A DNA stretch of 64,000 bases from Candidatus Binatia bacterium (GCA_963666315.2 CAXXHG010000043.1:384001-448000); one strand, 5' to 3'. Shown: positions 39,184 through 62,388, counted from the stretch's first letter. Program-made: numbers and translations. The notes: generated by a model from the sequence alone, not told the origin.

Positions 39184-39876
39184 ATGAAGGTGAACGCGAT
39201 CATTGTTGCGGCAGGAAAAGGCGAGCGCATGCAGAGTGAGCTGCCCAAGCCCTTCCTGTCTGTCGCCGGCAAACCGATTCTCGTGCATACCCTACGGCGT
39301 ATTGAGCAGGTGGCCGCAATCAGCCGTATCGTTGTTGTGGTTGCCCCTGAACGTGAAGCATTATGCCGTGAGCTGTTGCGCTCTCACGGGTCGTTTCGGA
39401 GGCCGATTGTCGTCGTGCATGGAGGCGCAGAACGGCAGGATTCGGTGCGCAAGGGCTTAGCTGGGCTTGAAACAGGCTGCGATATCGTCGTTATTCATGA
39501 CGCAGCTCGGCCGTTTATTGCGGTCAGGACCATTGAGCAGAGCATTACGGCGGCGGCTGAGTCGAGTGGTGCAATAGTTGCGATCCCGGCCCGGGATACC
39601 ATTAAACGCGTCAGCGCTCAGCATTTTATCTGTGAGACTGTTTCACGCTACGACCTCTGGCTGGCCCAAACCCCACAGACGTTTCGGGTTGCGGCCATTC
39701 GAGAAGCGCACGAAAGGGCTCTGCAATACGGCATATCGGCAACGGATGATGCCGCTCTTGTTGAGCAAATGGGGCAACGTGTTCGCATCGTTTTGGGTGA
39801 GGCTGGCAACTTTAAAATCACTACCCCGGACGATCTCGTTGTGGCTGAGGCACTCCTGCAAAGCAAGCCGGGCTAG
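39184..39876 (+). CDS. ispD: 2-C-methyl-D-erythritol 4-phosphate cytidylyltransferase
   Basis: AAGKGERM, GGAERQDSV, IHDAARP, AQTPQ, TDDA, NFKITTPDDL. Confidence 0.96.
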   Translation: MKVNAIIVAAGKGERMQSELPKPFLSVAGKPILVHTLRRIEQVAAISRIVVVVAPEREALCRELLRSHGSFRRPIVVVHGGAERQDSVRKGLAGLETGCDIVVIHDAARPFIAVRTIEQSITAAAESSGAIVAIPARDTIKRVSAQHFICETVSRYDLWLAQTPQTFRVAAIREAHERALQYGISATDDAALVEQMGQRVRIVLGEAGNFKITTPDDLVVAEALLQSKPG

Positions 39877-41018
39877 AGGCGCTCAAAATGTCGCGGAACC
39901 TGAGCCCCTTCGAGTCGGAGCCAGGCCGGTGGCTTCAAACCTTCAGCGCCTACCTCCTGTGTCTCATTGACCTTGATCTTGAGGCGGAGATTATTGACAC
40001 TGTCTGCATTACTCAGTGCTTGGTCAAGACCAATTAAGCCGTTGCTGTAGAGGTCGAAAAGGGCCATATCAAACGTCTGACAGCCCTCTAGTTCGGCTTG
40101 CGCCATCGCCTCTTTCAGCGTATCGACTTCACGCCGTTTGATCAGCGCTTTGATACGCGGTGTATCAAGCAGAATCTCTAACGCAGGGACACGCCGGTTG
40201 TCGGTTCCCAGGACTAAGCGCTGTGAGATGATGGCCCGAAGGTTGAGGGAAAGCTGGAGAAAGATCTGGGCATGTTGGGATTCCGGAAAAAAATTGATGA
40301 TGCGATCAAAGGATTGGTTCGCGTTCGTCGAGTGCAGCGTCGCAAGGCATAAGTGACCGGTGTCCGCAAAGGTGACGGCGGCTTCCATCGTGTCCCGATC
40401 CCGGATTTCGCCGATCAGAATGACGTCTGGAGCCTGACGCATCGCGCTCTTGAGCGCGGCCTGAAACGAGTGGGTATCTGACGTGACCTCTCTTTGGTTC
40501 ACAATCGACTTCTTATGGCGGTGAACAAACTCAACCGGGTCTTCAATCGTAATGATATGGCCCGAGGTAGTGCTGTTCCGATGGTCTATCATAGCTGCCA
40601 ATGAGGTTGACTTTCCTGAACCTGTTGCACCAACGACTAAGATGAGACCACGCTTGGCCAGCATGATATCTTTGAGAATGGAGGACAGTCCTAGATCGTC
40701 CAATGTTGCGATGTCAAAGTTGATTTTACGCACCACCATGCCGACCAAGCCGCGCTGTCGAAACACATTCACCCGGAAACGACTGAACTCGCTGTAAGAG
40801 AGCGCAAGATTCATTTCCCATTGTTCAGTAAATTCCTGCCACTGCTGGTCATTCATAGTTGAGCGGGCAAGGACCTCCATATCGGACGGAGTGAGCATCT
40901 CTCCTCCGAGGGATTGGGTGCTACCCTCGATCCGGTACATGGGCGAAGTCCCGACAGTCAGATAAATGTCTGACGCGTTGTGACTCACCATAGTCTCAAG
41001 GAGGGGTTTTATATCCAT
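39873..41018 (-). CDS. pilU: Type IV pilus retraction ATPase PilU
   Basis: GATGSGKSTSLAAMI, TIEDPVE, MRQAPDVILIGEIRD, GCQTFD. Confidence 0.9.
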   Translation of the reverse strand: MDIKPLLETMVSHNASDIYLTVGTSPMYRIEGSTQSLGGEMLTPSDMEVLARSTMNDQQWQEFTEQWEMNLALSYSEFSRFRVNVFRQRGLVGMVVRKINFDIATLDDLGLSSILKDIMLAKRGLILVVGATGSGKSTSLAAMIDHRNSTTSGHIITIEDPVEFVHRHKKSIVNQREVTSDTHSFQAALKSAMRQAPDVILIGEIRDRDTMEAAVTFADTGHLCLATLHSTNANQSFDRIINFFPESQHAQIFLQLSLNLRAIISQRLVLGTDNRRVPALEILLDTPRIKALIKRREVDTLKEAMAQAELEGCQTFDMALFDLYSNGLIGLDQALSNADSVNNLRLKIKVNETQEVGAEGLKPPAWLRLEGAQVPRHFERL

Positions 41019-41034
41019 GTGCTGCTCCGTTTCT

Positions 41035-42114
41035 CTATCCACGCAGGGCCATGCGACCGGTTGTCTCGGCCCGTCCAAAAAGGTTGGGGGTCATACTCTT
41101 GGTCTGTGCTTCTTCTGCGGTAATGAGGCCGCGGGCGGCGAGGTCCATGAGCGCCATGTCCATTGTTTGCATGCCGTCTTTTTGGCCGACCTGCATAGCA
41201 GAAGGGATCTGATGCACTTTCCCTTCTCGGATCAAATTACGGACTGCAGGGGTTGGAACGAGGCTCTCTAAAGCCGCGGCGCGTCCGCCCGCTTTCTTTT
41301 TGCACAGGATTTGAGTGATGATGGCTTCAATGGAGTCGGCGAACTGGGTGCGGATCTGGGCTTGCTGGGCCGCCGGGAATACGTCGACAATACGGTCAAC
41401 GGTTTGGGCAGCGCCAGGTGAGTGTAAGGTGGCAAAGACAAGATGGCCCGTTTCGGCTGCGGTGATCGCGAGCTGAATGGTTTCCAGGTCACGCATTTCA
41501 CCGACGAGGATGATATCCGGATCTTCACGTAAGACTGCTCGGAGCGCATTGGCAAAGGAATGGGTATGTACGCCGAGTTCGCGTTGGGTGACGAGACATT
41601 TCTTCGACTAGTGGGTAAATTCAATCGGATCTTCAATCGTGATGATATGGCCTTCAAAGTCGTCATTGATGTGATAGACCATGGCGGCTAGGGTGGTCGA
41701 TTTTCCCGATCCTGTTGGTCCGGTGACGAGGATGAGTCCTTTTTCGCGTTTACACAGTTGCTTCAAGAGCGGCGGCAGACCAAGTTTTTCAAACGAAGGG
41801 ATTTCCGTCGGAATCGTCCGGAAGACTGCGCCTTCCCCACGCTGTTGCATAAAGACGTTGACCCGGAAACGTCCCACGTCACCCATATCAAACGAGAAGT
41901 CCAGCTCGAGCGTCTCCTCAAAGTCGTTGCGTTGGCCGTCATCCATAATGTCATAGATGAGAGCGTGCACTTCATCGCGAGAAAGCGCTGGGTGATCCAG
42001 ACGCTTCATACGACCGTCGAGCCTGATCATGGGTGGTTGCCCGCTGCTCAGGTGAACGTCTGAGGCTCCTGACTGAATCGCGAAGGTCAGCAATGCGGTG
42101 ACATCAATAGACAT
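41035..42114 (-). CDS. pilT: Type IV pilus retraction ATPase PilT, interrupted by an in-frame TAG at 41608-41610
   Basis: GPTGSGKSTTLAAM, TIEDPIEFTH*SKKCLVTQRE, REDPDIILVGEMRD, AVRNLIRE. Confidence 0.9.
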
Positions 42115-42289
42115 GAAAATCCCTTCCACCGTACAGTACAAAAGATCGCGGTTTCCTGTGGGAACTTTACTAAGAAAAGTCATACAGGACAAGCATTTTT
42201 CTACCCAATATCTGCCGCAATCTGTCTCTATGCACTCTCCCTCGCATGTGGTAAGCCAGACGTTCTATTTTTTTACGAGGAGGCACGGC

Positions 42290-43136: not shown

Positions 43137-43829
43137 ATGAATGGTCGTCGCATCTACCTCATGCGCCATGGCGAAACCCTCTACCAACGTGTGGCAAACG
43201 AGGGGGCACTTGGCAATGGCGCACTCACCGAACGTGGGCAAGAGCAGATCGCAACAGCGGCTCTTTTATTTCGTGCCGTTGCTCTTGATGCAATATACAC
43301 CAGCCCGCTTGAGCGTGCATATGAAACCACCCAGATTATTGCCAAGGAAAAAGAGCTGGACATTCAGGTTGCGCCAGAGCTCAGCGAGATTATTCCCAGC
43401 GATGCAGTGCTCGAGCAAAAGAGTCTTACGGAGATATTCAAGGATATTCAGGAATTCTTTAAGAACGCAGACTCAGACTGGGGCGAATCGTACTTGGGGG
43501 GTGAGAGTTTTCAGCAGGTGTATGAGCGCGCTGGTCGATTTCTCAAGACTCTCCTGAGCAAGGATGACTGGCAAACGCTGCTCCTCGTCGCGCATGGGGG
43601 AGTGAACAATGCTTTTTTAGCCCACGCTACAGGGACAACGAGTGGACGGGTGTTCAATATTGAGCAGGACTTTGGGTGCATAAACATCATAGACTTTGCC
43701 AGGAATCGACCTTTTCTTCGCTTAGCCAATTTTACCCTGTACGATCAGCTCAAAATCAACCTTCGAGAGCACAGCTTGGATATCATTCTTAATCTGCTTA
43801 GAGGTCGAGGGGTTATTGATCCTGATTGA
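43137..43829 (+). CDS. Histidine phosphatase family protein
   Basis: YLMRHGET, SPLERA, GGESF, LVAHGG. Confidence 0.9.
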   Translation: MNGRRIYLMRHGETLYQRVANEGALGNGALTERGQEQIATAALLFRAVALDAIYTSPLERAYETTQIIAKEKELDIQVAPELSEIIPSDAVLEQKSLTEIFKDIQEFFKNADSDWGESYLGGESFQQVYERAGRFLKTLLSKDDWQTLLLVAHGGVNNAFLAHATGTTSGRVFNIEQDFGCINIIDFARNRPFLRLANFTLYDQLKINLREHSLDIILNLLRGRGVIDPD

Positions 43830-44011
43830 GCGGGAATAAGAAGAAAAATTTCCCGACTTTCTGGGCGGCTCATCCTCTAGCAGGCCTCTGGATTTCCCTA
43901 TGTCATTGATTCTCATAAAAGAATTAGAATGAGGTAAGGAGAAAAAGGAGAAATTGTCGAAAAAGAAGGTACGGTGGCTTGATTTCTTTTCTAATCTATC
44001 TTATCTAGTTT

Positions 44012-44024
44012 AATTAGACTAATT
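44012..44024. promoter_or_regulatory. Candidate PadR operator palindrome
   Basis: AATTAG-A-CTAATT perfect dyad 16 nt upstream of the padR start. Confidence 0.5.
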
Positions 44025-44039
44025 CATAAGAAACCAACA

Positions 44040-44696
44040 ATGAGCGTCCAACTTGTCGTCCTAGGGCTATTATCTGAGAAGCCGAGTCACGGTTATGAAC
44101 TGCGACAAGAGGTCGAGCGTCGGTTGTATGCGTCATATATCAACCTCAGCGGAGGGTCACTCTACTACAACCTGGGGCAACTGGAGCGCGCCGGCTACGT
44201 AGAGAAGACTCGAGTAGAGCAGAAGGGACGCTATCCTGCCCGTCAAGTCTACCAAATTACGCCGGGGGGCAAAGAATATCTCCAGGCTGAGTTGCGACGC
44301 CTCTTATTCAATACTGAAGAACGAGACAAGGTTTTTGATCCGCTCAATACCGCCCTGGCCTTTGGCCACTTCCTGAAAAGGGACGAGTTATATACCGCGC
44401 TCCAAAGCCATCTGGAGTGGGCGCAGAAAAGGCTGGCCTGGGTGACTGAGCAGCAAGCGTATTGGGGTGCCCAGAGTGCAACATTGCCGCAAGTCCAGAT
44501 TATTGAGCATGGGCGTGCTCACTTCAAAGCGGAAATCACTTGGCTCGAACAATTTCTGGGTATACTTGAAACACAAGACGGTCAGGAGTTAGAGGCGAAC
44601 ATGTCCCTTGGCGTCTCTTCTCCCGAAGCGGAGGAGGCGGTTGAACAAACGCGTAAAAATCCCATACAAGAGGAGGGTCCAGTATGGAAGGTCTAA
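44040..44696 (+). CDS. PadR-family transcriptional regulator
   Basis: VLGLLSEKPSHGYEL, GSLYYNL..LE..GYV, RQVYQITPGG, C-terminal EITWL. Confidence 0.92.
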   Translation: MSVQLVVLGLLSEKPSHGYELRQEVERRLYASYINLSGGSLYYNLGQLERAGYVEKTRVEQKGRYPARQVYQITPGGKEYLQAELRRLLFNTEERDKVFDPLNTALAFGHFLKRDELYTALQSHLEWAQKRLAWVTEQQAYWGAQSATLPQVQIIEHGRAHFKAEITWLEQFLGILETQDGQELEANMSLGVSSPEAEEAVEQTRKNPIQEEGPVWKV

Positions 44697-45328
44697 GTGT
44701 CCTCGATATGATTCAGCAGGGGTGGTACATCACCTATCCCCTGATTGTGATGTCTATGGTTATTATCACGATTATATTTGAACGAATATTCGCTCTGCGT
44801 GGACTGATCGCCGGCACTCTCCAGACTGCCGGCGGGCTGGTTGGGCAATTACAGAAAGGTGATTTCCAAACGGCCCTTGCCACCGCCGAGGAGAATCAGA
44901 AAAAGCCGGCCGGCCGCATATTTCGCGACGTCATTTCCCAACAAGAGGGGGAATCTCTTGAATATCTGTCTGAAGTCATTGAGAACCGACGCTTCGAGGA
45001 AATCGAAGCACTCAAAGGCAGCATCTGGGTCCTGGGAACAGTCGGTGTGAGTGCGCCCTTCATCGGGCTACTCGGTACCGTCATCGGGATTATCAAATCC
45101 TTCACAAGTATGGCGGTTGAGGGCAGCGGTGGTTTTGCGGTTGTTGCCGGTGGTATTTCTGAGGCCCTGATTGCAACGGCTCTTGGCCTCGCAGTCGGGA
45201 TCATTGCGGTGATCTTCTACAATTATTTTCATACCAAACTTGAGCGGATCGAGGCGGCAATGACGATCAGCTCGGACCGTGTCCTCGAAGCAGTCCGTCT
45301 CGGGAGGAAAGCTCATGGGAATGGCTAG
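44684..45328 (+). CDS. MotA/TolQ/ExbB proton channel family protein
   Basis: APFIGLLGTVIGII, GISEALIATALGLAV. Confidence 0.93.
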   Translation: MEGLSVLDMIQQGWYITYPLIVMSMVIITIIFERIFALRGLIAGTLQTAGGLVGQLQKGDFQTALATAEENQKKPAGRIFRDVISQQEGESLEYLSEVIENRRFEEIEALKGSIWVLGTVGVSAPFIGLLGTVIGIIKSFTSMAVEGSGGFAVVAGGISEALIATALGLAVGIIAVIFYNYFHTKLERIEAAMTISSDRVLEAVRLGRKAHGNG

Positions 45329-45734
45329 TCCACGCAAGAAGAAGGCGAGTGGGTCTGCCATTATGGCCGAGATCAATATCGTTCCCTTGTGCGACATCTT
45401 TCTGGTGCTACTAATCATCTTTATGGTGACCAGCGTGGCGATGGTCCAATCCGGAGCGCATATTACTCTGCCCGAGGTTCAAGAGACCGATTCCGAGCCG
45501 CGACAGATTGTCATTACAGTCACGCCACAAAAAGAGATCTTTGTGAATGCCAGACCTGTGAAAATGATCGAACTCGAAGTGGCGCTTCGTCAGCTTATAA
45601 TGGCAAAGCCAGACGTACCGGTCGTACTCGAAGGTGATCAGGATGTCATCCTGGGGGAGGCTGTAAAAATCCTCTCCATTGCGCAGCGAGCTGGGGCAAC
45701 CCAGGTCGCAATTGCTGCCCGGCAAGCGGGCTGA
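45315..45734 (+). CDS. ExbD/TolR family protein
   Basis: EINIVPLCDIFLVLLIIFMV with the essential TM Asp. Confidence 0.93.
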   Translation: MGMASPRKKKASGSAIMAEINIVPLCDIFLVLLIIFMVTSVAMVQSGAHITLPEVQETDSEPRQIVITVTPQKEIFVNARPVKMIELEVALRQLIMAKPDVPVVLEGDQDVILGEAVKILSIAQRAGATQVAIAARQAG

Positions 45735-45768
45735 AAAGTGTAAGCGACCTCGTATCCCAAGGAAGGGC

Positions 45769-47010
45769 ATGGTTATGGCTGCATCCGAGGAAAATACGAA
45801 AACACCCGAGGAATCTTCGGTCGAGCGCAAAATCCAAGAGGACCTGTGGCTGTCTCGGGGCGGGGGATTTGGCAAAAACGCGCGGTGGTTTGCCTTCTCG
45901 ACCGCGGCCCATATCCTGGTCTTGTCCATATTTGCAACGACGGCTGTGACCATCATGCGAGAGCCGGAAATGATTAAGGTCAAAGCCTTACCGCTGACGG
46001 CAGAAGAGCTGGCGGCCATGGAGGAGGCGGGGGATGATGATTGGGAGGGCGAGCCGTCCTTGGAGGATATTCCGGGCATCCTGACCATGGAGGATCTGGC
46101 TCTGAGCAAAGCCCGGCCCACTGGGCCGGCGTCAACCGGCCCCCTTCAGGCACCCATTCAACGGGCAGCTATTCCGGTCTTCCAGGGGCATGGTCTTGTC
46201 ACGATAGACGTGAAGCGCCCGGACGATAGCTTCTCCGGCTTCGCAACCCAGCTGAGCGGTCTGGTCGGAACTGAAAATTTTGGTGGTGGCGGGTTTGGCG
46301 ATTATGGCCGAGGGCTGCGTAAGGTTGGTCTTGATGTCGCCTTGGTGATTGATGCCACGGACAGTATGCAGTTTGTCATCGACTCGGTACGCAGTCGATT
46401 GACTAAATTGGTGACTCTCTTGCGCAAGCTCGTACCGACCTCGCGCATCGGCATTGTGACTTACCGCGATAGAGGCGAAGAGTATGTGACGAGGTGGGTG
46501 GACTTGAGTTTTTCGACTTTGAAGCTGAAGAATTTTCTGGCTAATCTGCATGCGGATGGAGGAGGGGACTGGCCCGAGGCTGTCTATGAGGGCCTGGACG
46601 CGGCGGTGAATGATCTGAGTTGGCGTAAACGCTCACGTCGTGTTGTCGTCCTCGTTTCCGGCTCTCCGCCGCACCCGGAAAGTATGGGTGGCGTCCTGAG
46701 TTTGGCCCAGGGATTCCAGTCTCGTGGCGGAGTCGTGAGTGTGATGGACCTGGCCGAAAAGATGCACGAAGACTTTGAATACGCCCTGTGGGAACAGACC
46801 GGCAAGGTTATGAACGTCCCCTTTGAGCCCACTCCTTTGCCTGGATTTTATCGAGACTTCCGGAATACGATGGCATCGGTAGCGCAAGCGGGTGGTGGAG
46901 ACTTCATCCCGCTGACCGAGGAGAAGGTGCTGACCAGGAATATTATTATCATGACCTTCGGTTCGCGTTGGGAAGTGGAAATGGCGAAATATCTGCGAGA
47001 CTTGGAATAG
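45769..47010 (+). CDS. Membrane-anchored vWA-domain protein with TonB-like SxxxH anchor
   Basis: TM WFAFSTAAHILVLSIFA; acidic/Pro/Gly spacer; vWA DVALVIDATDSM, IVTYRD, GGGDWPEAV. Confidence 0.85.
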   Translation: MVMAASEENTKTPEESSVERKIQEDLWLSRGGGFGKNARWFAFSTAAHILVLSIFATTAVTIMREPEMIKVKALPLTAEELAAMEEAGDDDWEGEPSLEDIPGILTMEDLALSKARPTGPASTGPLQAPIQRAAIPVFQGHGLVTIDVKRPDDSFSGFATQLSGLVGTENFGGGGFGDYGRGLRKVGLDVALVIDATDSMQFVIDSVRSRLTKLVTLLRKLVPTSRIGIVTYRDRGEEYVTRWVDLSFSTLKLKNFLANLHADGGGDWPEAVYEGLDAAVNDLSWRKRSRRVVVLVSGSPPHPESMGGVLSLAQGFQSRGGVVSVMDLAEKMHEDFEYALWEQTGKVMNVPFEPTPLPGFYRDFRNTMASVAQAGGGDFIPLTEEKVLTRNIIIMTFGSRWEVEMAKYLRDLE

Positions 47011-47155
47011 CGGGATAGTGCGCTGTGGAATGGTAATATGCAAAAGGACGCTCGTGCACCTCGGTGCAAGGGGCTCTCTTCATGTCATGCCGGGGATGGA
47101 AAGTCGGAGCTTTGGGCGCAAAATGAACACTAGAATATAAAAAAGGAGTACGAGC

Positions 47156-49558
47156 GTGCGGCGTCTGGTTTCCATTATCGGCATGGTGTCTCTTGTGATG
47201 AACATGGGGGCTCTGACCTCTGAGGTCCAGGCCGCCTCACTCTCTGAGCTGTCTTCGCGCGCAAAGCAGGCCCGCAGTAAGGTCAATGGGCTGAAAAAAG
47301 GTGGCTGGAGCGCCCAAGAAAAGATCGAAGCCATTCAAATACTTGGCCCTGTTGCGCTTGATTTTGTGGCGGTTCCCAATCTGGCCGCATCGGTCAAAAC
47401 GACGTCTGGTAGAAAAGCGGTCCGCGCCGTCTACGAGACGCTTTATGGTCCACTCAACCATATCTACACAGGCAGTTTCCTGCGCATTGACCAAATGACG
47501 AAGCAGGTCATTGCGCAGGATGGTGACCTAGAGGCCGTGCAAGACTCACAGGCATACCAAGCCGAACAGGGTGTTGCTGCGCGCTCCTTGTATTTCTTGA
47601 ACCACCTCAACTACATCGGCTCGTTCGCGTTTGACGACGAGAAAAAGAAGGAACTGCTCCAGAAGGCGATGAATGGATATTCCGAGTTCGCTGTGGGGGA
47701 TCAGGCCTCGCGACTCAAAAACGAAAGTTTGTTTTTTCGGGCGCTGTGCGAACGCGAACTCCAGAAATTCGACTGGGCAGTCCGCGATTTCGAGCTGCTC
47801 TTAAAACAGGGCAGATTGTCCGCAGACATGCGGCGTAAAGCCCAGCGAGCGTTGGCCCAGACGCGTAAATTCGCTAAGAGTGGTGGCAAGATTCAGTCCT
47901 CTCCTACGGACTTGGCTCTGGCTAATCATCAAAAAGCGAAGAGCTTCCTAAAGCAGAGTCGTAAGGCGAGCGGTAAGAAGCGGCGCACCCTACGGGGTCA
48001 GGCGCTCACATTGATTCTTGAGGTCCGCAAGGCGGGTGGCAAGTGGACGGTGCGGGCGGATGAGCTGGCCAGGGCAGAGCTGACGGCTGAAGAGCAACTC
48101 GCACTCGCGGAACATATATATCCCTTTCCGCCGTGGCTGAAAGCTAAAGAGCTTATGAAAAAACGCCGCTTTGCCAAGGCGGTGCCTTTTCTGGAGGAAG
48201 TCCTGGCATCAAACGAACCAAATGCCGCTGTGTACAAAACCGACGCGCAGTATTACCTCGGAGTCGGGCTGTATGAACAACGTCGGTATCGAGAGGCCAT
48301 TGCGAAATTGGACGCCTTTCTCCTCAATGGGGGGGCAGAGACCAAGCGCGCGTCTGACGCGGAATATTTCCAGTTCAAGTCAGCCGAGTCGCTGTACGCT
48401 GGGGACCAAAGCGACCGAACGGCAAAGATCTACTTGAAAGCAATTAACGACTACACCCGGAAATATCCGAAACACCGCTCCATATACGAGGCGCATTTTC
48501 GACTTGGTGAGTACTATCAGGATAAGAAAAACTATCTGAAGGCGGCGGGTGCGTATAAAAAGGTAAGAGGACAGCAAGCGTATCGCGTCCGCGCCGACTA
48601 CGCGACCCTTCAGTCATACTTTGAAGTTTTGCACGCCATCGAAGACGGAGACACAGGGAGCGGGCTGAGTGAGGATGACCTTCGGCAGCGGATAGGGGAG
48701 AGCCTCGATGCGTTCTGGAAAAATAACGCCAAGCTGGCCGAGAGTAGTCCGAAGCTCGCCAAACGCGATCCATACCGTGAATATCCGGGTAAAGTCGGGG
48801 TGATGAATGCGGTGTATTTGAGCAAGGATACTGATGCAAATGCGGCCCAAATCGTCTCCTTGCTTGACGGCTTTGAAGAGAAATACCCCAAGCAGCCCGA
48901 CGCCTTTGAAACCGTGGCGCGGACGCGGCTGATTGCTCTGCAGAAGACGGGGCAATACATCGAGTTGGAAAAGGATGTGGATAAGATTTTTGCTCGTTTT
49001 CAACCCGAACAGCAAAAAGAACTCCTCGTCGGCCTGGCCGGCGTCTTAGAGAGAGATGTCCGCAAACTCCGCCGTAAGAATGATCGTGACGGCGAACTCG
49101 CTGCGAAGCGGACGCTCACCCGGCTGCACGTAGACCGACTCGAGAATGGTGGGGACTTTGCCGACGACGAATCCCCGGATCGATTCCGGTACGATCTTGC
49201 CCAGCTCTATCTCGATACCAAACAATACGACGAGGCCGAGGTCCTGTATAAAGACCTGGAACAAAAACAGGGTCCGTACTCGCTGGTGTCACTCGTCGGC
49301 TTGGCCCAAATTGCCGAGGTCAGGGGTAATAAAAAGCTGTCTTTATCGCTCTGGGAGGGCGCGCTCAAGGGGACTCACGTGGGCGATCCGCTCTGGTTTC
49401 GGGGCACGTTTGAGGTGGCGCGGCTTAACGGCGATATTGGCAATGCTGACCAAGCGTGCAAGACCGTTAGCAGCGCCCAGCGTATGCTTCATCGTCTCGG
49501 TGATCAAAAACTCAAGGCCAAGATTCAGGACTTTGCTAGCCAAACGTGCGGGGTGTAA
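47156..49558 (+). CDS. Large exported TPR-repeat protein
   Basis: Signal peptide ending VQA; multiple TPR-like helices (DAQYYLGVGLY, EAHFRLGEYY, RYDLAQLY). Confidence 0.8.
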   Translation: MRRLVSIIGMVSLVMNMGALTSEVQAASLSELSSRAKQARSKVNGLKKGGWSAQEKIEAIQILGPVALDFVAVPNLAASVKTTSGRKAVRAVYETLYGPLNHIYTGSFLRIDQMTKQVIAQDGDLEAVQDSQAYQAEQGVAARSLYFLNHLNYIGSFAFDDEKKKELLQKAMNGYSEFAVGDQASRLKNESLFFRALCERELQKFDWAVRDFELLLKQGRLSADMRRKAQRALAQTRKFAKSGGKIQSSPTDLALANHQKAKSFLKQSRKASGKKRRTLRGQALTLILEVRKAGGKWTVRADELARAELTAEEQLALAEHIYPFPPWLKAKELMKKRRFAKAVPFLEEVLASNEPNAAVYKTDAQYYLGVGLYEQRRYREAIAKLDAFLLNGGAETKRASDAEYFQFKSAESLYAGDQSDRTAKIYLKAINDYTRKYPKHRSIYEAHFRLGEYYQDKKNYLKAAGAYKKVRGQQAYRVRADYATLQSYFEVLHAIEDGDTGSGLSEDDLRQRIGESLDAFWKNNAKLAESSPKLAKRDPYREYPGKVGVMNAVYLSKDTDANAAQIVSLLDGFEEKYPKQPDAFETVARTRLIALQKTGQYIELEKDVDKIFARFQPEQQKELLVGLAGVLERDVRKLRRKNDRDGELAAKRTLTRLHVDRLENGGDFADDESPDRFRYDLAQLYLDTKQYDEAEVLYKDLEQKQGPYSLVSLVGLAQIAEVRGNKKLSLSLWEGALKGTHVGDPLWFRGTFEVARLNGDIGNADQACKTVSSAQRMLHRLGDQKLKAKIQDFASQTCGV

Positions 49559-49672
49559 ATCGGGCCGAGGGGGCCTGGCAATATCGCAATATCAAGCGAC
49601 CAAGCGATATTGCGATCAGCGATTCCCCCCACAGAATATTGCGCTTCCCTTGCATCGCCCTAGAATAAGGCG

Positions 49673-51592
49673 ATGGTCGATCTCCTGATCGTTCTCGCAT
49701 TTGTCCTGTACGCCGTTTCCACAGGACTGCGGGCGCGCAAGCGTGCTTCACAAAACCTGTCTGAATACTTCCTGGCGGGTAAAACCCTGACTGGGTGGCG
49801 GGCAGGGGTCAGCATGGCAGCGACCCAATTTGCTGCCGATACGCCGTTGCTGGTCACGGGTCTGATTGCTACAGGCGGTATCTTCCTCGTCTGGCGATTG
49901 TGGATTTATGGTCTGGCCTTCTTACTCATGGGCTTTGTCTTTGCGGCGGGTTGGCGGCGTACGGGGGTAGTGACGGATGCGGAACTCGCGGAACTGCGCT
50001 ACAGCGGGCCAGGGGTCCTGGCCCTGCGTGGGCTGAAAGCGTTGTACTATGGCACAGTCATTAACTGTGTCGTTATCGCCATGGTGTTGGTTGCCGCCCT
50101 GCGTATCGCCGAAGTGTTTCTTGTGTGGCACGCTTGGCTCCCGACCGGACTGTACACGAGTTTTTCTCAGGCGATTCAAGGCTTGGGGATTTCTCTTGCT
50201 TCAGGGGCAACTGGTCTCGATGCGTCTATTGCGACGACAAATAATTTCATCAGTATTATTGCTCTGGTGAGTTTTACTGCCTTCTATTCTACCGCTGGTG
50301 GGCTGCGCAGTGTTGTCGCGACAGACATTGTCCAATTTTTTCTGGCAATGGCAGGCACGCTTATCTATGCGTGTGTGGTGATCGCCCACATCGGCGGATT
50401 GGAAGAACTCCCGAAGCAGCTTGCCGCACACTACGGGGCCGAGGCTGCTGAGGCGATGCTCTCTTTTACGCCCTCTCAAGGCGAGGTGCTGATGCCCTTC
50501 CTCATCCTGATCAGTTTGCAATGGTTCTTCCAAGTCAGTAGCGACGGGAGCGGTTATCTGGCGCAGCGCGCCATGGCGTGTAGAACAGACCGTGAGGCGC
50601 GGATCGCAGGGCTGGTGTTTGCCTGGCTGCAGATCGTCGTGCGCAGCCTGCTCTGGCTGGTGATTGGGGTCGGCCTCTTGGTCATTTATCCTTTTAACCC
50701 TGTTGACCTTGCTGATATTGCGAATGGTGGAGGTGAACAGTTCACTGCGAGCCGTGAGCTTGTCTTTGTCACTGGGATTAACGACCTGCTGCCTACCGGC
50801 GTGCGCGGTGTCATGCTGGTTGGTCTTTTAGCCGCCCTGGCCTCAACTATTGATACACATATGAACTGGGGAGCTAGCTATTGGAGTAACGATCTGTATA
50901 AACGCCTGCTGTGTCAGGCCTGGCTGCAACGGGAAGCCCAGAATAAGGAACTCGTTTTTGTGGCGCGTGTGTCGAATATCCTCGTGCTCGGCATTGCGCT
51001 TATCATCATGACCCAGCTCGGTTCGATCCAAGCCGCCTGGTCTGTCTCGCTGCTCTTTGGGGCAGGGACAGGCGCCGTCCTGGTGCTGCGTTGGCTGTGG
51101 GAGCGCATTAATGTATTTTCTGAAATTGCAGCCATGCTGGTCTCCTTGATCGCTGCACCTATCCTGCTCATGACTGTTGATGCCGAATGGCTACGTATAG
51201 CGGTCATGGGTGGCCTTTCGACCCTGGCCGCCATCGGGATAACATTTTTTTCTCCTGCAACCGAACATGCTGTGCTGGACCGCTTCTATCAACGTGTACA
51301 GCCCCTCGGCTTTTGGCACGACACTGCCCTACGCATGGGGGATGATCCCGACATGCCGCTGCGACGATTTTTCCGTGAGCTGAAAAATACGATACTGTGT
51401 GCGTTGTCCCTTTTCTTGACGCTCATCGGATTTGGAAAATTGCTCGTCCACTCGGCTGACGAGTCGAGCCTATGGGCGTGGATTGCTCTTGGCGTGGCGG
51501 CTATGCTGGTTCCGTTTTGGTGGCGTGCTGCGGGAGCATCGCCCCGCCAGGGTAGCGATGCGGGACCGGATGAGAAAATGATGTGTGGGTAA
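49673..51592 (+). CDS. Sodium:solute symporter family protein
   Basis: EYFLAG, SMAATQFAADTP, GGLRSVVATD, YLAQR, AALASTIDT; many TM helices. Confidence 0.92.
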   Translation: MVDLLIVLAFVLYAVSTGLRARKRASQNLSEYFLAGKTLTGWRAGVSMAATQFAADTPLLVTGLIATGGIFLVWRLWIYGLAFLLMGFVFAAGWRRTGVVTDAELAELRYSGPGVLALRGLKALYYGTVINCVVIAMVLVAALRIAEVFLVWHAWLPTGLYTSFSQAIQGLGISLASGATGLDASIATTNNFISIIALVSFTAFYSTAGGLRSVVATDIVQFFLAMAGTLIYACVVIAHIGGLEELPKQLAAHYGAEAAEAMLSFTPSQGEVLMPFLILISLQWFFQVSSDGSGYLAQRAMACRTDREARIAGLVFAWLQIVVRSLLWLVIGVGLLVIYPFNPVDLADIANGGGEQFTASRELVFVTGINDLLPTGVRGVMLVGLLAALASTIDTHMNWGASYWSNDLYKRLLCQAWLQREAQNKELVFVARVSNILVLGIALIIMTQLGSIQAAWSVSLLFGAGTGAVLVLRWLWERINVFSEIAAMLVSLIAAPILLMTVDAEWLRIAVMGGLSTLAAIGITFFSPATEHAVLDRFYQRVQPLGFWHDTALRMGDDPDMPLRRFFRELKNTILCALSLFLTLIGFGKLLVHSADESSLWAWIALGVAAMLVPFWWRAAGASPRQGSDAGPDEKMMCG

Positions 51593-55332: not shown

Positions 55333-56079
55333 ATGCCAACACAAGTGGATTCACCGGGTATTCTGTATTTCATTGAACAAGGCGGGGTGTTGATGTACCT
55401 CATCATCCTGTTGTCTATTTTTGCTCTGGCCATTGTGCTGGTCAAGTTCTGGGGATTGTGGCGTTTTCGGTCCCAGTTGGAGCAGCTCAGCCAGCGGCTT
55501 AGCCTGCACGCTCAGGGAGCTGGACACGACTCCAGCAAAGAGGCGCACCTGGCTGCCGCACTACAAATCTGTAGCGAGGATAACTCTCCGCTGGGTAGGT
55601 TATTCGAGACTGCTTTTCTGTATCGTGCAGAAGGGCGGACTGAACTGACCCACCGCCTCGAACGGTTTGGTGGGGACGTAGTGGCGGGGCTGGAGTCATA
55701 TATGACCGCCCTGGCCAGCGTCGTTGGGGTTGCGCCCATGCTGGGATTCCTCGGCACGATTATCGGTCTGGTTGAAGCCTTTATGAGCTGGGAGACGCTC
55801 GGGGGGCAGATTACGGTAGGCGTGTTAGCCGGTGGTATTTATAAAGCCATGCTGACCACAGGAGCAGGCCTGTGTGTCGCGATTCCATACTTCTTGTTGT
55901 ACAACCACCTCACTATGCGGGTGCAGGCCTTGACCCGTTTGACTGAAGCGCGGACCGAAGAACTCCTGGATACGCTGACCGAGACGAAGGCGCACGCAGC
56001 GGTCCAAGAAGCGGCATCCGAAGCGATGCCGGGAGCGGGGCAAGTGCCAACGCGGGAGCTGACACGTCATGCGGTTTAA
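55333..56079 (+). CDS. MotA/TolQ/ExbB proton channel family protein
   Basis: APMLGFLGTIIG, GGIYKAMLTTGAGL. Confidence 0.92.
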   Translation: MPTQVDSPGILYFIEQGGVLMYLIILLSIFALAIVLVKFWGLWRFRSQLEQLSQRLSLHAQGAGHDSSKEAHLAAALQICSEDNSPLGRLFETAFLYRAEGRTELTHRLERFGGDVVAGLESYMTALASVVGVAPMLGFLGTIIGLVEAFMSWETLGGQITVGVLAGGIYKAMLTTGAGLCVAIPYFLLYNHLTMRVQALTRLTEARTEELLDTLTETKAHAAVQEAASEAMPGAGQVPTRELTRHAV

Positions 56080-56488
56080 ACCAGGGTCCAAAGTTTTGGC
56101 GAGTATGGAGCCGCTTGCGCTCACAGACATCATCATCAATATGTTCATCTTCTTCTTTATTACTTTCAGTTTCCTGGCCACGTTTGAAAAAACGCGCGAA
56201 GGCCAGGTGAATGTCAATTTGCCCAAAGCTACGTCGGCCACGCCTCCGGTAGAAAAGAAACGTCTGAATGTCAGCCTGAAGAAAGACGGCGGGCTGTTCC
56301 TCGGTGACACGCCGGCAACTATTGAAGACCTCGAAGCGCGCTTCAAGGCTGAAAAGGCCCAAGGAGCAGACGTAATCCTGGTCATTCGGGCGGACGGCGA
56401 TGTTACTCATAGCCGGGTGGTCCAAGTGATGGACCTTGCCCGAATCGAAGGGCTGAATCGCTTGGCCATAGCAACGCAGAATAGATAA
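56069..56488 (+). CDS. ExbD/TolR family protein
   Basis: LTDIIINMFIFFFI, VNLPKA, IRADG.V. Confidence 0.92.
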   Translation: MRFKPGSKVLASMEPLALTDIIINMFIFFFITFSFLATFEKTREGQVNVNLPKATSATPPVEKKRLNVSLKKDGGLFLGDTPATIEDLEARFKAEKAQGADVILVIRADGDVTHSRVVQVMDLARIEGLNRLAIATQNR

Positions 56489-56494
56489 GGAATT

Positions 56495-56566
56495 GGGGGT
56501 AGGGGAGAGGGGATAGGGATGAGCGCCTTACAAAAGAAAATTCTCCGACCCCTCTCCCCTACCCCC
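56495..56566. repeat. 18-bp perfect purine/pyrimidine inverted repeat
   Basis: GGGGGTAGGGGAGAGGGG (56495-56512) and CCCCTCTCCCCTACCCCC (56549-56566). Confidence 0.88.
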
Positions 56567-56582
56567 TATCTCCCACTTCGCC

Positions 56583-57461
56583 ATGTCCCCGTGGCAAGAA
56601 CATAACCTGGGCGAAATTACACAACGCCTCGCCCCACTCTGTCGTTCTCCGCAGGGTGTTCTGTTTGAGCAGTCATCTCTCAACAATCACATTGTCGTCC
56701 GACATGGACGGGGACAGATTCTGCTGTGCTATCGACACACGGGGCACCGTATCGAAGAGGTCCAATCTCGGCTTGATCCCACTCATCCGCTCAGGCTGCT
56801 CTCCCCTTACACCCAGGCCATGATGCTGGCGCTGCTCTGGTGTCGGCAGCCACAACGCATTTTGCTTATTGGTCTTGGTGGCGGCCGGCTGCAGCTGGTA
56901 CTACACCACCTGCTTAAAGACGCACGGCTCGCAACCGTTGAACTCGATCCTCTTGTTCTTGAAGTTGCCCGGCGCTTCTTTGGTTTCCTGCCTGATGAAC
57001 GTCAGTGCGTTTCGCTTGCAGACGGGAGAGCCTTTTTGCGTGAGGAGTCGGCTCATGCCCAGTATGATTTGATCTTTCTGGATGCATACCAGGCCGAAGG
57101 TGTCCCGTCTCATATGATAACGCTTGAATTCTACGCTGAATGTCGTGCACGCCTTTGTCCCAACGGGTTGGTTGTTGCCAATCTGCATTCTTCCACGCCG
57201 GTGTATGATGCCTCACGCACGACGTTTGCCGCAGCGTTCAGATATATGACGGCTTTCTCTGTTTCGAGTGGTAACGTCGTTGTTTTGGGGAGCGAAGAGA
57301 CGCCGCTTGATCCCCGGGCACTCCGGAAGCAGGCCCGTATGGCGGAGGAATTCTACGGCGGGGTTCTTCCGTTTTCAACGTGGGCGAGGGATGTCTCTTT
57401 ACGCGCGCCATATCGCAATAACGCGCGGATACTCCAGGATAGCGTTTCGGTATCGGTATGA
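56583..57461 (+). CDS. Spermidine-synthase-like SAM-dependent transferase
   Basis: LLIGLGGG, VELDP.V, DGRAFL, YDLIFLDAY. Confidence 0.82.
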   Translation: MSPWQEHNLGEITQRLAPLCRSPQGVLFEQSSLNNHIVVRHGRGQILLCYRHTGHRIEEVQSRLDPTHPLRLLSPYTQAMMLALLWCRQPQRILLIGLGGGRLQLVLHHLLKDARLATVELDPLVLEVARRFFGFLPDERQCVSLADGRAFLREESAHAQYDLIFLDAYQAEGVPSHMITLEFYAECRARLCPNGLVVANLHSSTPVYDASRTTFAAAFRYMTAFSVSSGNVVVLGSEETPLDPRALRKQARMAEEFYGGVLPFSTWARDVSLRAPYRNNARILQDSVSVSV

Positions 57462-58264: not shown

Positions 58265-61200
58265 ATGAAAGCGGTTGCGGAAAACGTGAAGCTAGCCGAG
58301 GTTGAACTCGAAGTCCTGAAGTCTTGGGATGACAACGATATTTTCAAAAAGACGTTGACCAAAACCCAAGGGCAGCAGCCCTTTATTTTCTATGACGGCC
58401 CACCGTTTGCCACGGGCTTGCCGCATTACGGGCATTTATTGGCTGGAACCATCAAAGATATCATTCCCCGTTTTTGGACTATGCGTGGCCGCTATGTTGA
58501 GCGACGGTTCGGCTGGGACTGTCACGGCCTGCCGGTAGAGATGGAAATCGAACAGGCTCTGGGCATAAGCGGAAAAGCGGAAATCGAAAAATTCGGGGTT
58601 GCCAACTTTAACGACGAATGCCGCAAAATTGTGCTGCGTTATACTCAGGAGTGGGAAAAGACCGTCCGCCGAATGGGCCGTTGGGTCGATTTTCGGAACG
58701 ACTACCGCACCATGGATGCCTCCTTTATGGAGACGGTGTGGTGGGTGTTCCAGCAGATGTGGGACAAAGACTTAGTCTATGAAGGATACAAAGTCCTGCC
58801 CTTTTCGACCCGGCTGGGGACGGTATTGTCCAATTTTGAAGCCAATCTGAATTATAAAGACGTTCAAGATCCAGCCCTCACGATCCGGTTTGCCGCTGAG
58901 GGCGAGGAGAACACCTTTTTCATTGCCTGGACGACAACCCCGTGGACGCTGCCGAGTAATCTGGCTTTAGCCGTTGGTTCGGACATCGACTATGTGAAAG
59001 TTCGCGATCATGTGGATAAGAGCTGCTACATCCTGGCTGAGGCCCGACTGAAGGTCTATTTCCCCAAAGATGGCACCTATACCGTTGAAGCCCGCTATCA
59101 AGGCAAAGACCTAGCCGGGCGGTCCTTTGTCCCTCTTTTCCCCTATTTTGCCGAACACAAGCAGGCCGGCGCCTTTCGGGTGATCGAGTCCGAGCACGTC
59201 ACTACAGAAGACGGCACCGGTATCGTACATATTGCCCCTGCCTTTGGCGAAGACGACTTTTATGCCTGCCAAAAGGTGGGTATTCCTCTCGTTAATCCGG
59301 TTGACGATGAAGGACGTTTCACCCAAGCGGTGAGTGATTTTGCGGGCATGCATGTCAAAGAGGCAGACCCCAAAATTATTCAGTATCTGAAACGAGAAAA
59401 GCAACTCGTGCATCAGAGCACGATTAATCATAGCTACCCGTTTTGCTGGCGAAGTGACACGCCACTTATCTATAAGGCGGTGGACACGTGGTTTGTGCGG
59501 GTTGAAGCGTTTCGTGACCGGTTGGTGAGCAATAACCAGCTGATCGCCTGGGTGCCGGATCATCTGCGTGATGGGCGCTTTGGCAATTGGCTCGAAAATG
59601 CGCGTGATTGGGCAATTAGCCGCAATCGGTACTGGGGGACGCCGTTGCCTATTTGGAAAAATGAAGACGGATCTGAAGTCGTCTGTCTGGGCAGTGTGGA
59701 TGAAGTAGCTGAGCGCACGGGAACACGGGTCAACGACTTACACCGCGAATTTGTTGACGATCTCACCTTTCCGGACTCGAGCGGCAATGGTCTCATGCGC
59801 CGCGTCCCCTTCGTGTTTGATTGCTGGTTTGAGAGCGGGTCGATGCCGTACGCTCAGATTCATTACCCGTTTGAGAACAAAGAGGATTTTTCGCGCGTAT
59901 TTCCCGCAGACTTTATCGCCGAAGGGCTGGATATGACACGCGGCTGGTTTTACACTCTGATGGTGGTGGCCTCTGCGCTGTTTGACAAGCCGGCTTTCCA
60001 CAACGTCATCGTCAATGGGCTCGTTCTGGCCGAAGATGGTAAAAAGATGAGCAAGCGGCTTAAGAACTATCCCGAGCCTGAGGAGACAATAGCTGAGCAT
60101 GGGGCTGACGCCCTGCGTCTCTACCTCATTAACTCGCCGCTAGTGCGGGCAGAGGAGCTGCGCTTTAGCGAGCGAGGAGTGCGTGATACTGTCAGACGCT
60201 TACTTCTGCCGTGGTGGAACGCCTATAAATTCTTTGTCACGTATGCCGTAGTTGATGACTGGCGTCCGTCCCAAACGCCGAGCGGCGATTCCCCCAATAT
60301 TTTAGATCGCTGGATACTCTCGCGGAAGCAAACGCTTATCCGCCGAGTGAGTACTGAGATGGAAGAGTATCGGTTATACAATGTCGTTCCCGCGCTGCTC
60401 GACTTTCTGAACGAGTTAACGAATTGGTATGTGCGGCTCAACCGGCGCCGTTTCTGGAGTGAAGACAACGCTGCAGAAAAACAGTTTGCCTATCAGGCCC
60501 TGTATGATGTACTGCTGGCCTTTGCCAAACTGATGGCTCCGTTTACGCCATTTTTTGGCTGATGCCATTTACTGCAACCTTGTCACGCTGCAAGAAACGG
60601 GGGCCGAAGACAGCGTCCATCTAGAGCCTTTCCCCGACTATGATGAACGTCAGGTTGACGTTCAGCTCGAAGATGCGGTGACGCGGATGCAACGCGTGAT
60701 TCTGCTCGGTCGGAGTCTGCGCAACGAGCGCAAAGTCAAAGTGCGTATCCCCCCTCCAAACCCTGACTATTCTTCATCGCCAGCAGCCGATCCTGGATGA
60801 ATTACGTCCTTTGGCGGGCTATATCCGGGAAGAGTTAAATGTCAAAGAAATTATCTACAGCACGGCTGAAGATGAAAAAATCACTCTGAGTGCAAAGCCC
60901 AACGCCCAGCTGCTAGGCCCGCGCTTTGGGAAGACGTTCGGGCAGGTGCGCAAGCGGATTGCCGATCTTGCCGCGGACCAGATGCTCGCGCTTGAGGCTG
61001 GTGATTCGATTCAATTGGACGGCGAGACGTTCCAGCCCAATGAGATTCAGATCCTACGCGCAGCACGGGAAGGGGCGCAAAAATGGACAAGACATACAGG
61101 ATGTCCGGTCGGATCGATTTATCTCGATCGATTTTCCATGTGAGTTGAACAATGCCCTGATTGCTGAAGGACTCGCCCGCGAAGTCGTGCACCATATCCA

Positions 61201-61423
61201 ACAGCTGCGCAAGGAAGCTGGTTACCATGTTGAGGATCGCATTGCCGTGACCTATGAAGCCGACGGCCGCCTGCTCGATGCGATCACACAACACAAGACG
61301 TATATCCAGCAAGAGACCCTGGCGCGCGTGCTTGATCAAACGCAGCCCAGCGGAGACAAAGTGGACAGTGTGAAGATTGATGGGGCAGCGCTCACCGTTG
61401 GAGTGCAGCGCGAGAGCGTGTGA
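58265..61423 (+). CDS. ileS: Isoleucine-tRNA ligase, type 2 (eukaryote-like), frameshifted as assembled
   Basis: DGPPFATGLPHYGH, GWDCHGLP, WAISRNRYWG, KMSKR; frame breaks near 60555, 60750 and 61080. Confidence 0.95.
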
Positions 61424-62029: not shown

Positions 62030-62369
62030 ATGACAGTGAAGATAAGAACGGGCAGTCTCTTGGTCATTGCGGTGTTTGCCCTGAGTGCCTGCTCACAGCC
62101 ACTCTCAACGCGTGAGAAGGGGACATTAGCTGGGGCAGGCCTAGGTGCGGCAACCGGCGCGATTATTGGGGCGATGGTCGGCAGCCCCTGGGGCGGGAGC
62201 GGCCATAGGCGGCGCCCTTGGCAGTGTGACCGGTGCGGTGGTGAGTGATAAAATACAAAGCCAAGAAACGCAACAGACTGAGCAGCAGCGGCAGCTTGAA
62301 CAGCAACGACACGAGATCGAGCAACAACGTCGAGAGCTCGAAGATCTCAAACGACAACAAGAATACTAG
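62030..62369 (+). CDS. Glycine-zipper lipoprotein with coiled-coil tail (frameshift near 62188)
   Basis: Lipobox LSAC, GAGLGAATGAIIG, Q/E-rich tail; AGGAGG RBS. Confidence 0.75.
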
Positions 62370-62388
62370 ACACGAGAAAGCATTGGCT

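Follow-up and report, generated by a model that had tools for sequence, protein, structure and literature searches.

What would a proton motor of the Ton/Tol type drive when its genes are accompanied by neither TonB nor the Tol-Pal proteins, and are followed instead by genes for a von Willebrand factor type A (vWA) protein and a tetratricopeptide repeat (TPR) protein? The question is raised by a 64-kb stretch of DNA (the window, from whose first nucleotide positions are counted) from a Candidatus Binatia bacterium (GCA_963666315.2 CAXXHG010000043.1:384001-448000), the genome of which is 5.0 Mb in size and 92% complete and has relatives almost all labelled Candidatus Binatia. Open reading frames (ORFs) and Pfam matches define five tightly packed plus-strand genes at 44040-49558, encoding a PadR-type regulator, an ExbB-like and an ExbD-like protein, the vWA protein and the TPR protein. 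These genes probably form one operon for a machine powered by the proton-motive force (PMF) and belonging to the 'vWA force transducer' class. The feature itself is real and conserved; most likely it is a vWA transducer coupled to a proton motor and partnered by a TPR protein. The genes are as follows:

44040-44696, plus strand: padR, a PadR-family winged-helix regulator of 218 amino acids (aa) with a C-terminal extension (Pfam PadR, 64.4 bits; cut-off 27)
44684-45328, plus strand: exbB/tolQ-like gene for a proton-channel subunit, 214 aa (Pfam MotA_ExbB, 109 bits)
45315-45734, plus strand: exbD/tolR-like gene, likely start at ATG 45315, overlapping exbB (Pfam ExbD, 93.9 bits)
45769-47010, plus strand: vWA force-transducer candidate, 413 aa, with a transmembrane (TM) helix, a linker and a vWA domain
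47156-49558, plus strand: TPR gene, 800 aa, exported, an all-alpha solenoid (Pfam TPR_2, 38.9 bits)

An initial annotation of this DNA had described overlapping padR, exbB and exbD genes followed by the vWA gene and an 800-aa exported TPR gene, and this is what the sequence contains: the first three genes overlap successively (padR and exbB by 13 nucleotides, nt), and a gap of 145 nt separates the vWA gene from the TPR gene. Every gene on that list is present, but the starts of exbD and of the vWA gene needed correction. The exbD-like frame is already open from GTG 45279, and the vWA frame is open from 45679, with ATG 45769 chosen as the start because database homologues begin there. It had also been stated that the locus holds no TonB, TolA/TolB/Pal or TonB-dependent receptor, with which our domain scan agrees: among the ORFs that it covered from 42098 to 63960, none matched TonB_C, TolB, Pal or a TonB-dependent receptor, and the sole related match was to a distant OmpA-family gene (62245-63099).

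The case for a transducer begins with the architecture of the vWA protein. An AlphaFold2 model computed with 31 homologues has a helix at residues 37-63 (predicted local distance difference test, pLDDT, of ∼82), a disordered stretch at 65-184 (pLDDT below 50 at 87-184) and a vWA fold at 186-413, within which most 10-residue blocks score 80-93, the lowest 60-69, and residues 411-413 fall to 47. Pfam VWA_4, VWA_2 and VWA each match above their cut-offs; neither Pfam nor NCBIfam gave a match to TonB_C, TonB_2 or TolA domains in this protein, and TonB_C and TolA domains were found elsewhere in the genome. In a Foldseek comparison with the PDB, the fold was closest to BatB (3ibs) and a related aerotolerance protein (4jdu), followed by the pilus adhesin SpaC and integrin I domains, with a probability of 1.00 both for BatB and for the integrin I domains; a sequence search of the PDB with the vWA profile returned no match at E ≤ 0.001. 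The one N-terminal TM helix with S-T-A-A-H, the spacer and the domain with a DxTxS motif like that of a metal ion-dependent adhesion site (MIDAS), all reported by the initial annotation, are present, and four elements of the protein deserve separate mention:

45898-45912, plus strand: codons of the SxxxH motor-binding motif, Ser44-Thr-Ala-Ala-His48, within TM helix 37-63
45970-45996, plus strand: post-TM motif M68-I-K-V-K-A-L-P-L76, a candidate 'motor box' strand
46042-46083, plus strand: conserved linker island W92-E-G-E-P-S-L-E-D-I-P-G-I-L105, inside the disordered linker
46351-46365, plus strand: MIDAS-like D195-A-T197-D-S199, at the end of the first vWA strand

Ser44 and His48, whose conservation had been proposed as a check, are invariant in 31/31 aligned homologues, and a Ser-x3-His within a hydrophobic segment occurs in 79 of 80 related loci, the lone exception being truncated by a contig end. 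The residues that stay invariant down to 45% identity include W40 beside these two in the helix, and D195, S199, GGGD at 264-267 and H302 in the vWA domain; T197 is at least 90% conserved. D267 (of GGGD) and S299 (of GSPPH) occupy what we take to be the positions of the canonical MIDAS Thr and Asp. In a three-way alignment the SxxxH of the vWA protein falls on the SxxxH of the TonB and the TolA of the same genome, 'HILVL' being identical in the vWA protein and in TonB. The post-TM motif likewise aligns with LLKVALI of that TonB, the [IL]-K-V being equally spaced after the helix in both, and similar [IVL]-[KRT]-V motifs lie 18-21 residues past His48 in 73 of the 79 loci listed. The linker ahead of the vWA domain has a median length of 124 aa (range 102-147; 31 sequences) and is composed of 10% Pro, 15% Gly and 12% Asp plus Glu. 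Within its conserved island, G94, S97, D100, G103 and L105 are invariant in the Binatia vWA alignment, and the island is absent from distant relatives.

The second line of evidence is gene order, for which the window proteins were compared by tblastn with 80 loci from species-representative genomes, the neighbourhood survey that the initial annotation had called for. In 69 of the 72 loci with at least 1400 nt of sequence before the vWA gene, exbB-exbD immediately precedes that gene, while the remaining three have the order vWA-exbB(-exbD)-TPR, with the motor genes directly downstream of the vWA gene. Downstream of the vWA gene, a TPR homologue is present in 73/73 loci having at least 2600 nt on that side, and is directly adjacent in 70 of them. 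This arrangement persists to 40% vWA identity and 28% TPR identity, at which distance the flanking genes are no longer conserved.

Farther afield, the vWA profile gave 369 matches at E ≤ 1e-30 among 1.84 billion representatives. Of 149 representatives listed from P0128 on (the first match, P0034, already belonged to the Binatia vWA alignment), 66 carry Ser-x3-His in a hydrophobic segment, a count that includes a few Gly-rich false positives, many of the other representatives being fragments. Twelve distant relatives share the helix motif together with GLD[IV]V.V.D.T.SM, GGGD.PEA, G[DS].PPH and AGGGE, and exbB is present in 21 of the 25 distant metagenome loci that are flanked on each side by 2.5 kb or more. 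Four gene orders are seen among the metagenome loci: TPR-exbB-exbD-(exbD)-vWA, exbB-exbD-vWA-TPR, vWA-exbB-exbD-TPR, and a divergent exbD-exbD-exbB facing vWA-TPR. Look-alikes of these distant relatives point, roughly and as leads only, to Pseudomonadota, Binatota, Planctomycetota, Poribacteria and Verrucomicrobiota.

Within the class, sampled in 121 genomes including one unpublished genome (G233), the vWA profile at E ≤ 1e-40 matches 89/121 genomes, 80/108 of those of high quality and 49/65 genera, as against only 9/151 genomes in a sample from across the GTDB phylum. ExbB was found in 99/121 genomes and the vWA protein in 89/121 class-wide, a comparison limited by E-value thresholds that separate ExbB orthologues poorly. 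Subject to that same poor separation of orthologues, both are missing from families f85 and f87, family f77 has ExbB in 6/6 genomes and the vWA protein in 0/6, and families f78, f83, f86 and f88 have the vWA protein in 8/8 and ExbB in 0/8. In family f80, some genomes (G190, G249 and the unpublished G233) have two or three vWA-transducer matches, two of them adjacent (e.g. G190:C4:346007-348058), which suggests tandem paralogues.

The motor pair looks functional. In 76 sequences from related loci, ExbB P125, T132, E160 and T165 show at least 97% conservation, and the same level holds in 75 sequences for the TM Asp of ExbD that the initial annotation took to be retained, D27 as numbered from ATG 45315; these positions of ExbB and D27 of ExbD presumably correspond to the essential residues of the Escherichia coli proteins. 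By NCBIfam, the motor proteins are nearer to TolQ/TolR than to ExbB/ExbD, with all matches below the curated cut-offs; the best models for the ExbB-like protein are TolQ (108 bits) and ExbB (76 bits), both below cut-off.

The third line of evidence concerns the TPR protein, whose model is an unbroken all-alpha solenoid (pLDDT 89) preceded by a signal-like helix. Its residues 1-26 resemble a signal peptide and contain no lipobox Cys, and two C-terminal cysteines, Cys768 and Cys798, are at least 90% conserved. A Foldseek search of the PDB with this model returned only generic TPR solenoids, at TM-scores of 0.37 or below. The N-terminal third is the most conserved part of the protein and holds the loop on which a predicted contact with the vWA protein is centred:

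47519-47533, plus strand: codons of the TPR loop D122-G-D-L-E126, centre of the predicted vWA contact

D122, G123, D124 and L125 do not vary in the TPR alignment, and E126 is conserved to at least 90%. We modelled the complex, as the initial annotation had proposed, from TPR residues 29-536 and vWA residues 64-413. Three runs gave interaction prediction scores from aligned errors (ipSAE) of 0.69, 0.70 and 0.64, against 0.00 for the best of three controls, with contact agreement between runs of at least 13% and partner pLDDT of at least 65. The ipSAE mark used is attained by 116/157 solved complexes and by 2/215 mismatched pairs, a calibration that is only roughly valid here because our own alignments were used. 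Sequence searching turned up no relative of the vWA protein with a solved structure, so that a pass owed to memory of a solved complex is unlikely. Confident contacts involve TPR residues 108-126, 138-145, 169-182 and 199-211 and vWA residues 162-185, 223-224, 247-252 and 286-289, the pairs of lowest expected error being TPR 119/122/123/125 with vWA 247-249 and 224, and TPR 126 with vWA 286-289. On the TPR side the interface has a conservation of 0.579 against 0.393 at random, a value reached by 8/10000 random sets. The model thus supports, as a prediction, that the vWA protein attaches to the conserved N-terminal portion of its TPR partner.

In one respect this contact lends no support to the earlier reading. 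The initial annotation had a vWA domain with a MIDAS-like motif pulling on the TPR partner, and the MIDAS-like residues are absent from the predicted interface. They should sit on the face away from the TPR contact, because in the vWA model the two sets of residues lie at opposite strand ends. We also considered the invariant D-G-D-L-E loop as an acidic ligand of the MIDAS-like site and set this aside for now, its partners in the model being vWA 223-224, 247-252 and 286-289, to the exclusion of vWA 195-199, 267 and 299.

How does this system relate to those already described? The initial annotation regarded it as undescribed, which does not stand: a 2025 paper (PMC12204202) proposes vWA force transducers beside tolQR-like and TPR genes. 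In the transducer described there, a TM helix that bears an SHLS motif is followed by a disordered region containing a motor box, by a spacer of ∼100 residues and by a C-terminal vWA domain, and the paper's AlphaFold 3 models place the conserved His at the site used by TonB and TolA. Hosts named in the available text of that paper are Proteobacteria, Planctomycetes, Verrucomicrobia, Bacteroidetes and Rhodothermaeota, Binatia not being among them there. A full-text literature search on motor, vWA and TPR terms also returned two papers on Myxococcus gliding motility but found this paper alone for motor-coupled, membrane-anchored vWA proteins, and a term search of a Binatota genome survey (PMC8262859) found no mention of ExbB, TonB, von Willebrand or PadR.

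The Binatia locus resembles the class, as far as it is set out in the available text of PMC12204202, in the Ser/His TM helix, the post-helix motif (standing where that paper puts its 'motor box' strand), the disordered linker of about 100 aa and the C-terminal vWA fold, as well as in the adjoining motor genes and the co-occurring TPR gene. The later Leu and Ser positions of the SHLS motif are Phe/Leu55 and Ala/Thr59 in our homologue alignment. A more direct bridge is provided by one distant locus (L103), in which Pfam identifies TPR (375 aa)-MotA_ExbB-ExbD-ExbD-vWA (367 aa), the order that PMC12204202 gives for the Planctomycetes-Verrucomicrobia-Chlamydiae (PVC) group (TPR, tolQ-like, two tolR-like, vWA). 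The Binatia vWA alignment matches that of the distant relatives in hhalign with a probability of 100% (E = 3.8e-64; residues 169-413), and the window vWA protein matches the vWA protein of L103 in BLASTP with 28% identity (E = 7e-27). By these sequence comparisons the Binatia vWA protein is homologous to vWA proteins encoded in clusters arranged in the published order, and through the L103 homology it would belong with the Tichowtungia family of that paper (PMC12204202).

It nevertheless departs from the published PVC type in several ways. The Binatia order is exbB-exbD-vWA-TPR rather than TPR-tolQ-tolR-tolR-vWA, with a single exbD, not a heterologous pair, between exbB and the vWA gene (compare PMC12204202, available text). 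The TPR protein is encoded downstream and, with its 800 aa, is twice as long as the 375-aa counterpart in L103. The Binatia branch has gained in addition a padR gene with an operator-like dyad. The Binatia vWA protein also has an insertion of ∼28 aa, at roughly 330-358, with H333, F336, P356, P358, F360 and Y361 invariant in and around it, and its Ser299 replaces the Asp of GDAPPH in distant relatives. The Binatia system is a well-defined new addition to the class published in 2025, not a new category.

Among the better-known machines, TonB-ExbB-ExbD and TolQ-TolR-TolA share with this locus the same motor families and a transducer with an SxxxH helix, a post-helix motif and a long linker; unlike TonB and TolA, the vWA protein lacks a TonB_C or TolA C-terminal domain, and unlike the Ton and Tol systems the locus lacks a TonB-dependent receptor, TolB and Pal, the canonical Tol-Pal genes lying on another contig (C36). 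The initial annotation had envisaged a match to a characterised Agl/Glt or Bat system as a possible outcome, and none emerged from the scans of the locus. In the Agl-Glt system of Myxococcus, a TolQR-like motor works with the transducer GltG, whose TM helix is accompanied by a disordered linker of ∼124 aa and which is predicted to bind the large periplasmic TPR protein GltD; a vWA adhesin, CglB, is part of the system (PMC11761067). The predicted GltG-GltD complex offers an earlier example of a transducer that joins a large TPR protein in the periplasm; unlike the protein studied here, GltG has a TonB-like domain at its C terminus, and CglB is a protein of its own in the outer membrane (PMC11761067). 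Domain scans of the ORFs of the locus revealed none of the other Glt components there, a genome-wide search for them not having been made. The PADLOC models, which include known anti-phage systems with MotA-like parts such as Zorya, gave no match to any of the five proteins.

Like Bacteroides BatA/BatB with BatC, the locus joins a membrane-anchored vWA protein to a TPR protein, and BatB is its closest fold. The Bat operon contains genes for a MoxR-type AAA+ ATPase and a DUF58 protein and is not known to include an ExbBD motor, and we know of no Bat-type anchor that carries SxxxH. Neither MoxR nor DUF58 was matched in the ORFs scanned between 42098 and 53920.

The rest of the genome bears on whether this motor could have another client. 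Four genes of the MotA/ExbB family are present, and the ExbB paralogues are 25-31% identical to one another. One belongs to a canonical tolQ-tolR-tolA-tolB-pal cluster on contig C36 (TolB, 360.8 bits; Pal, 131.2 bits). Another belongs to a second exbB-exbD pair in the window, at 55333-56488 (MotA_ExbB, 80 bits; ExbD, 84 bits), among whose neighbours no transducer-like protein was seen; this pair may serve an orphan TonB, or may be a second stator of the same system. Tol-Pal is thus accounted for elsewhere, and the second exbB-exbD pair is a spare that could serve TonB, so that neither system need depend on the motor studied here. A MotA/MotB-like pair lies at C43:485-487 kb. Two genes match TonB_C, namely tolA on C36 and the orphan tonB on contig C24, which is flanked by genes for CusF and nickel insertion, and the genome has two TonB-dependent receptors.

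Two side observations touch these additional motors. In a middle clade of the related loci, a second exbB-exbD pair and a spermidine-synthase-like gene directly follow the TPR gene; their counterpart in the window (55333-57461) lies ∼5.8 kb further on, behind a block of symporter, molybdoenzyme and DUF4352 genes. At C43:485000-489600, outside the window, a MotA-like gene is accompanied by ORFs with MotB_plug and OmpA domains on the minus strand, and a further vWA gene (391 aa) stands ∼1.6 kb away on the plus strand, recalling a second vWA family that PMC12204202, in its available text, links to tolQ-like genes.

Several of our results weigh against a motor dedicated to a vWA transducer. The orphan TonB has an SxxxH of its own and no adjacent motor, so that the motor may be shared. 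The nearest relatives of ExbB and ExbD (44-49% identity) are found in Binatia family f77, in tonB-exbB-exbD operons; at the two loci concerned (L180 and L181), TonB has an SxxxH helix and TonB_2/TonB_C domains, and no vWA or TPR gene is nearby. In family f79 the pair stands without either a vWA or a TPR gene, and 4 of the 25 well-flanked distant relatives have no exbB nearby. The model of the complex rests on a shortened TPR protein (29-536) and on unpaired alignments, and its vWA side is conserved only marginally above background (836/10000 random sets reach the observed value). DSSP assigns no strand at residues 64-77, the candidate motor box, in the vWA monomer model. For the class as a whole, the available text of PMC12204202 states that no deletion phenotypes have been reported, the evidence being genomic and from modelling.

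The f77 operons indicate that this motor lineage can work with an ordinary TonB. Set beside such sister lineages, the locus shows the vWA protein in the place that a TonB holds there. The same operons suit the reading, in our judgement a quite unlikely one, that the motor is an ordinary Ton motor serving the orphan TonB and the two receptors encoded elsewhere, with the vWA and TPR proteins as a co-transcribed but separate Bat-like periplasmic module. Apart from these close relatives, that reading draws on the SxxxH of a TonB that has no neighbouring motor and on the resemblance of the vWA fold to BatB. It has to contend with the second exbB-exbD pair, which has no adjacent transducer and could serve TonB, with the retention of the TonB-type Ser/His in 79/80 vWA loci, with motor and vWA genes that remain together through four gene orders, and with a locus devoid of MoxR and DUF58.

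A shared motor, for which the vWA protein and TonB would compete at one ExbB site while PadR-controlled expression shifts power between uptake and the vWA/TPR task, strikes us as very doubtful: TolA, TonB and the vWA protein of this genome all carry the SxxxH helix and the post-helix motif, and TolA and TonB are able to use each other's motors (PMC12204202), but the ExbB paralogues share only 25-31% identity, which would allow specificity. Most improbable is a static role, in which the vWA protein would tether the TPR scaffold to the inner membrane by the motor or gate the motor; a permanent complex would suit a TPR contact formed by the pre-domain segment and the face away from the MIDAS-like residues, as it would the lack of an identified outer-membrane target, yet the long disordered linker and the conserved TonB-like N-terminal module are the layout of known transducers.

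The reading that we favour is the one advanced in the initial annotation, that a vWA protein replaces TonB on a dedicated ExbBD-type motor and has a TPR partner; it is supported by Ser/His conservation, by synteny and its persistence through rearrangements, and by the vWA-TPR model. As a working mechanism, family membership and intact key residues suggest that ExbB and ExbD would form a 5:2 proton motor of the Ton/Tol type. By analogy with TonB and TolA, the vWA protein would dock on the rim of the ExbB pentamer through the helix bearing Ser44 and His48, and its post-helix strand motif would engage ExbD. The disordered linker of ∼124 aa, an architecture evident in the protein, could then span the periplasm, and the vWA domain, together with the stretch that immediately precedes it, is predicted to hold the conserved N-terminal part of the periplasmic TPR solenoid. 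The MIDAS-like face would stay free for a third ligand, and rotation of the motor would pull on the vWA-TPR assembly. A bolder version, in which the vWA arm carries the TPR protein as cargo or adaptor on its non-MIDAS face while the metal-site face catches a third partner at the outer membrane, as a PadR-switched 'grappling' machine of three parts powered by protons, we regard as speculative and unlikely.

The regulatory part of the locus is specific to the nearer clade. padR occurs in 35/80 loci, each of which shares 53% or more vWA identity with the window, and in none at 47% or below; a few nearer loci end before the position of padR. No NCBIfam match of the PadR protein reaches its cut-off. 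We compared the upstream regions of the window and 34 related loci (35 in all), from which two features are taken:

43979-44007, plus strand: putative sigma-70-type promoter, with -35 TTGATT at 43979-43984, a 17-nt spacer and -10 TATCTA at 44002-44007
44006-44021, no strand assigned: candidate PadR operator TAGT-N8-ACTA, overlapping the -10 element and the dyad at 44012-44024

The perfect dyad that the initial annotation placed before padR (AATTAG-A-CTAATT, 44012-44024) does exist, but it is perfect in the window and one other locus (L011) only, and the conserved element is the overlapping TAGT-N8-ACTA. This element is exact in 28/35 upstream regions and has one mismatch in the other 7/35; its distance to the padR start is 32-35 nt in 33/35, and 44 and 47 nt in L026 and L029. 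It turned up in 8/2000 shuffled 160-mers and occurs once in the 64-kb window. Its form is presumably akin to the ATGT-N8-ACAT sites of other PadR proteins. TTGA[CT] lies 59-62 nt before the padR start in 28/35 regions, and we infer a sigma-70-type promoter there. A promoter and terminator scan of 43700-49800 showed no excess over shuffled sequences and did not call the conserved upstream promoter. The placing of the dyad over the -10 element is the layout expected for PadR autoregulation, and in the nearer Binatia clade PadR may bind TAGT-N8-ACTA over the -10 and so control its own operon, to judge from the conservation of the site. The earlier proposal of PadR control is thus plausible for the loci with both padR and the dyad (35/80), but not beyond them.

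Contigs from four marine or hydrothermal-vent RNA libraries lie on all five genes, and some span the exbB/exbD junction (45122-45439 and 45245-45621) or the exbD/vWA junction (45584-45926 and 45710-45858). They are a weak sign that the five-gene cluster is transcribed, weak because these are contigs, without a control for DNA carry-over.

The genes on either side look unrelated to the cluster: upstream are those for an enoyl-CoA hydratase and a histidine phosphatase, downstream those for a sodium:solute symporter and a BisC/TorA-like molybdoenzyme. Elsewhere in the window, an isoleucyl-tRNA synthetase appears to be split (58265-61423), with a 765-aa ORF that stops within the anticodon-binding domain (Pfam positions 1-82/148) and a separate 165-aa ORF that holds the C-terminal DUF5915; the split may reflect a frameshift or faulty assembly of the metagenome-assembled genome. 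On the minus strand at 39873-42192, at least two adjacent ORFs (401 and 194 aa) match T2SSE, the type II/IV secretion ATPase, with short ORFs between them, and may be two PilB/PilT-like genes, one of them fragmented.

Proton motors of 5:2 stoichiometry have been reused for very different envelope tasks, as in Ton, Tol, Mot, Agl and GldLM, and vWA-tipped transducers are a recently proposed further branch of these systems. For following up this branch the Binatia version is useful, being compact (four core genes) and widespread and coming with a regulator and a candidate operator, and the predicted interface between transducer and TPR protein points to definite residues and constructs with which the class could first be tested biochemically. 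Were the grappling machine to prove true, it would give the Binatia an envelope function that no Ton or Tol system provides, for example in uptake, or in remodelling of the outer membrane in response to hydrophobic or aromatic compounds.

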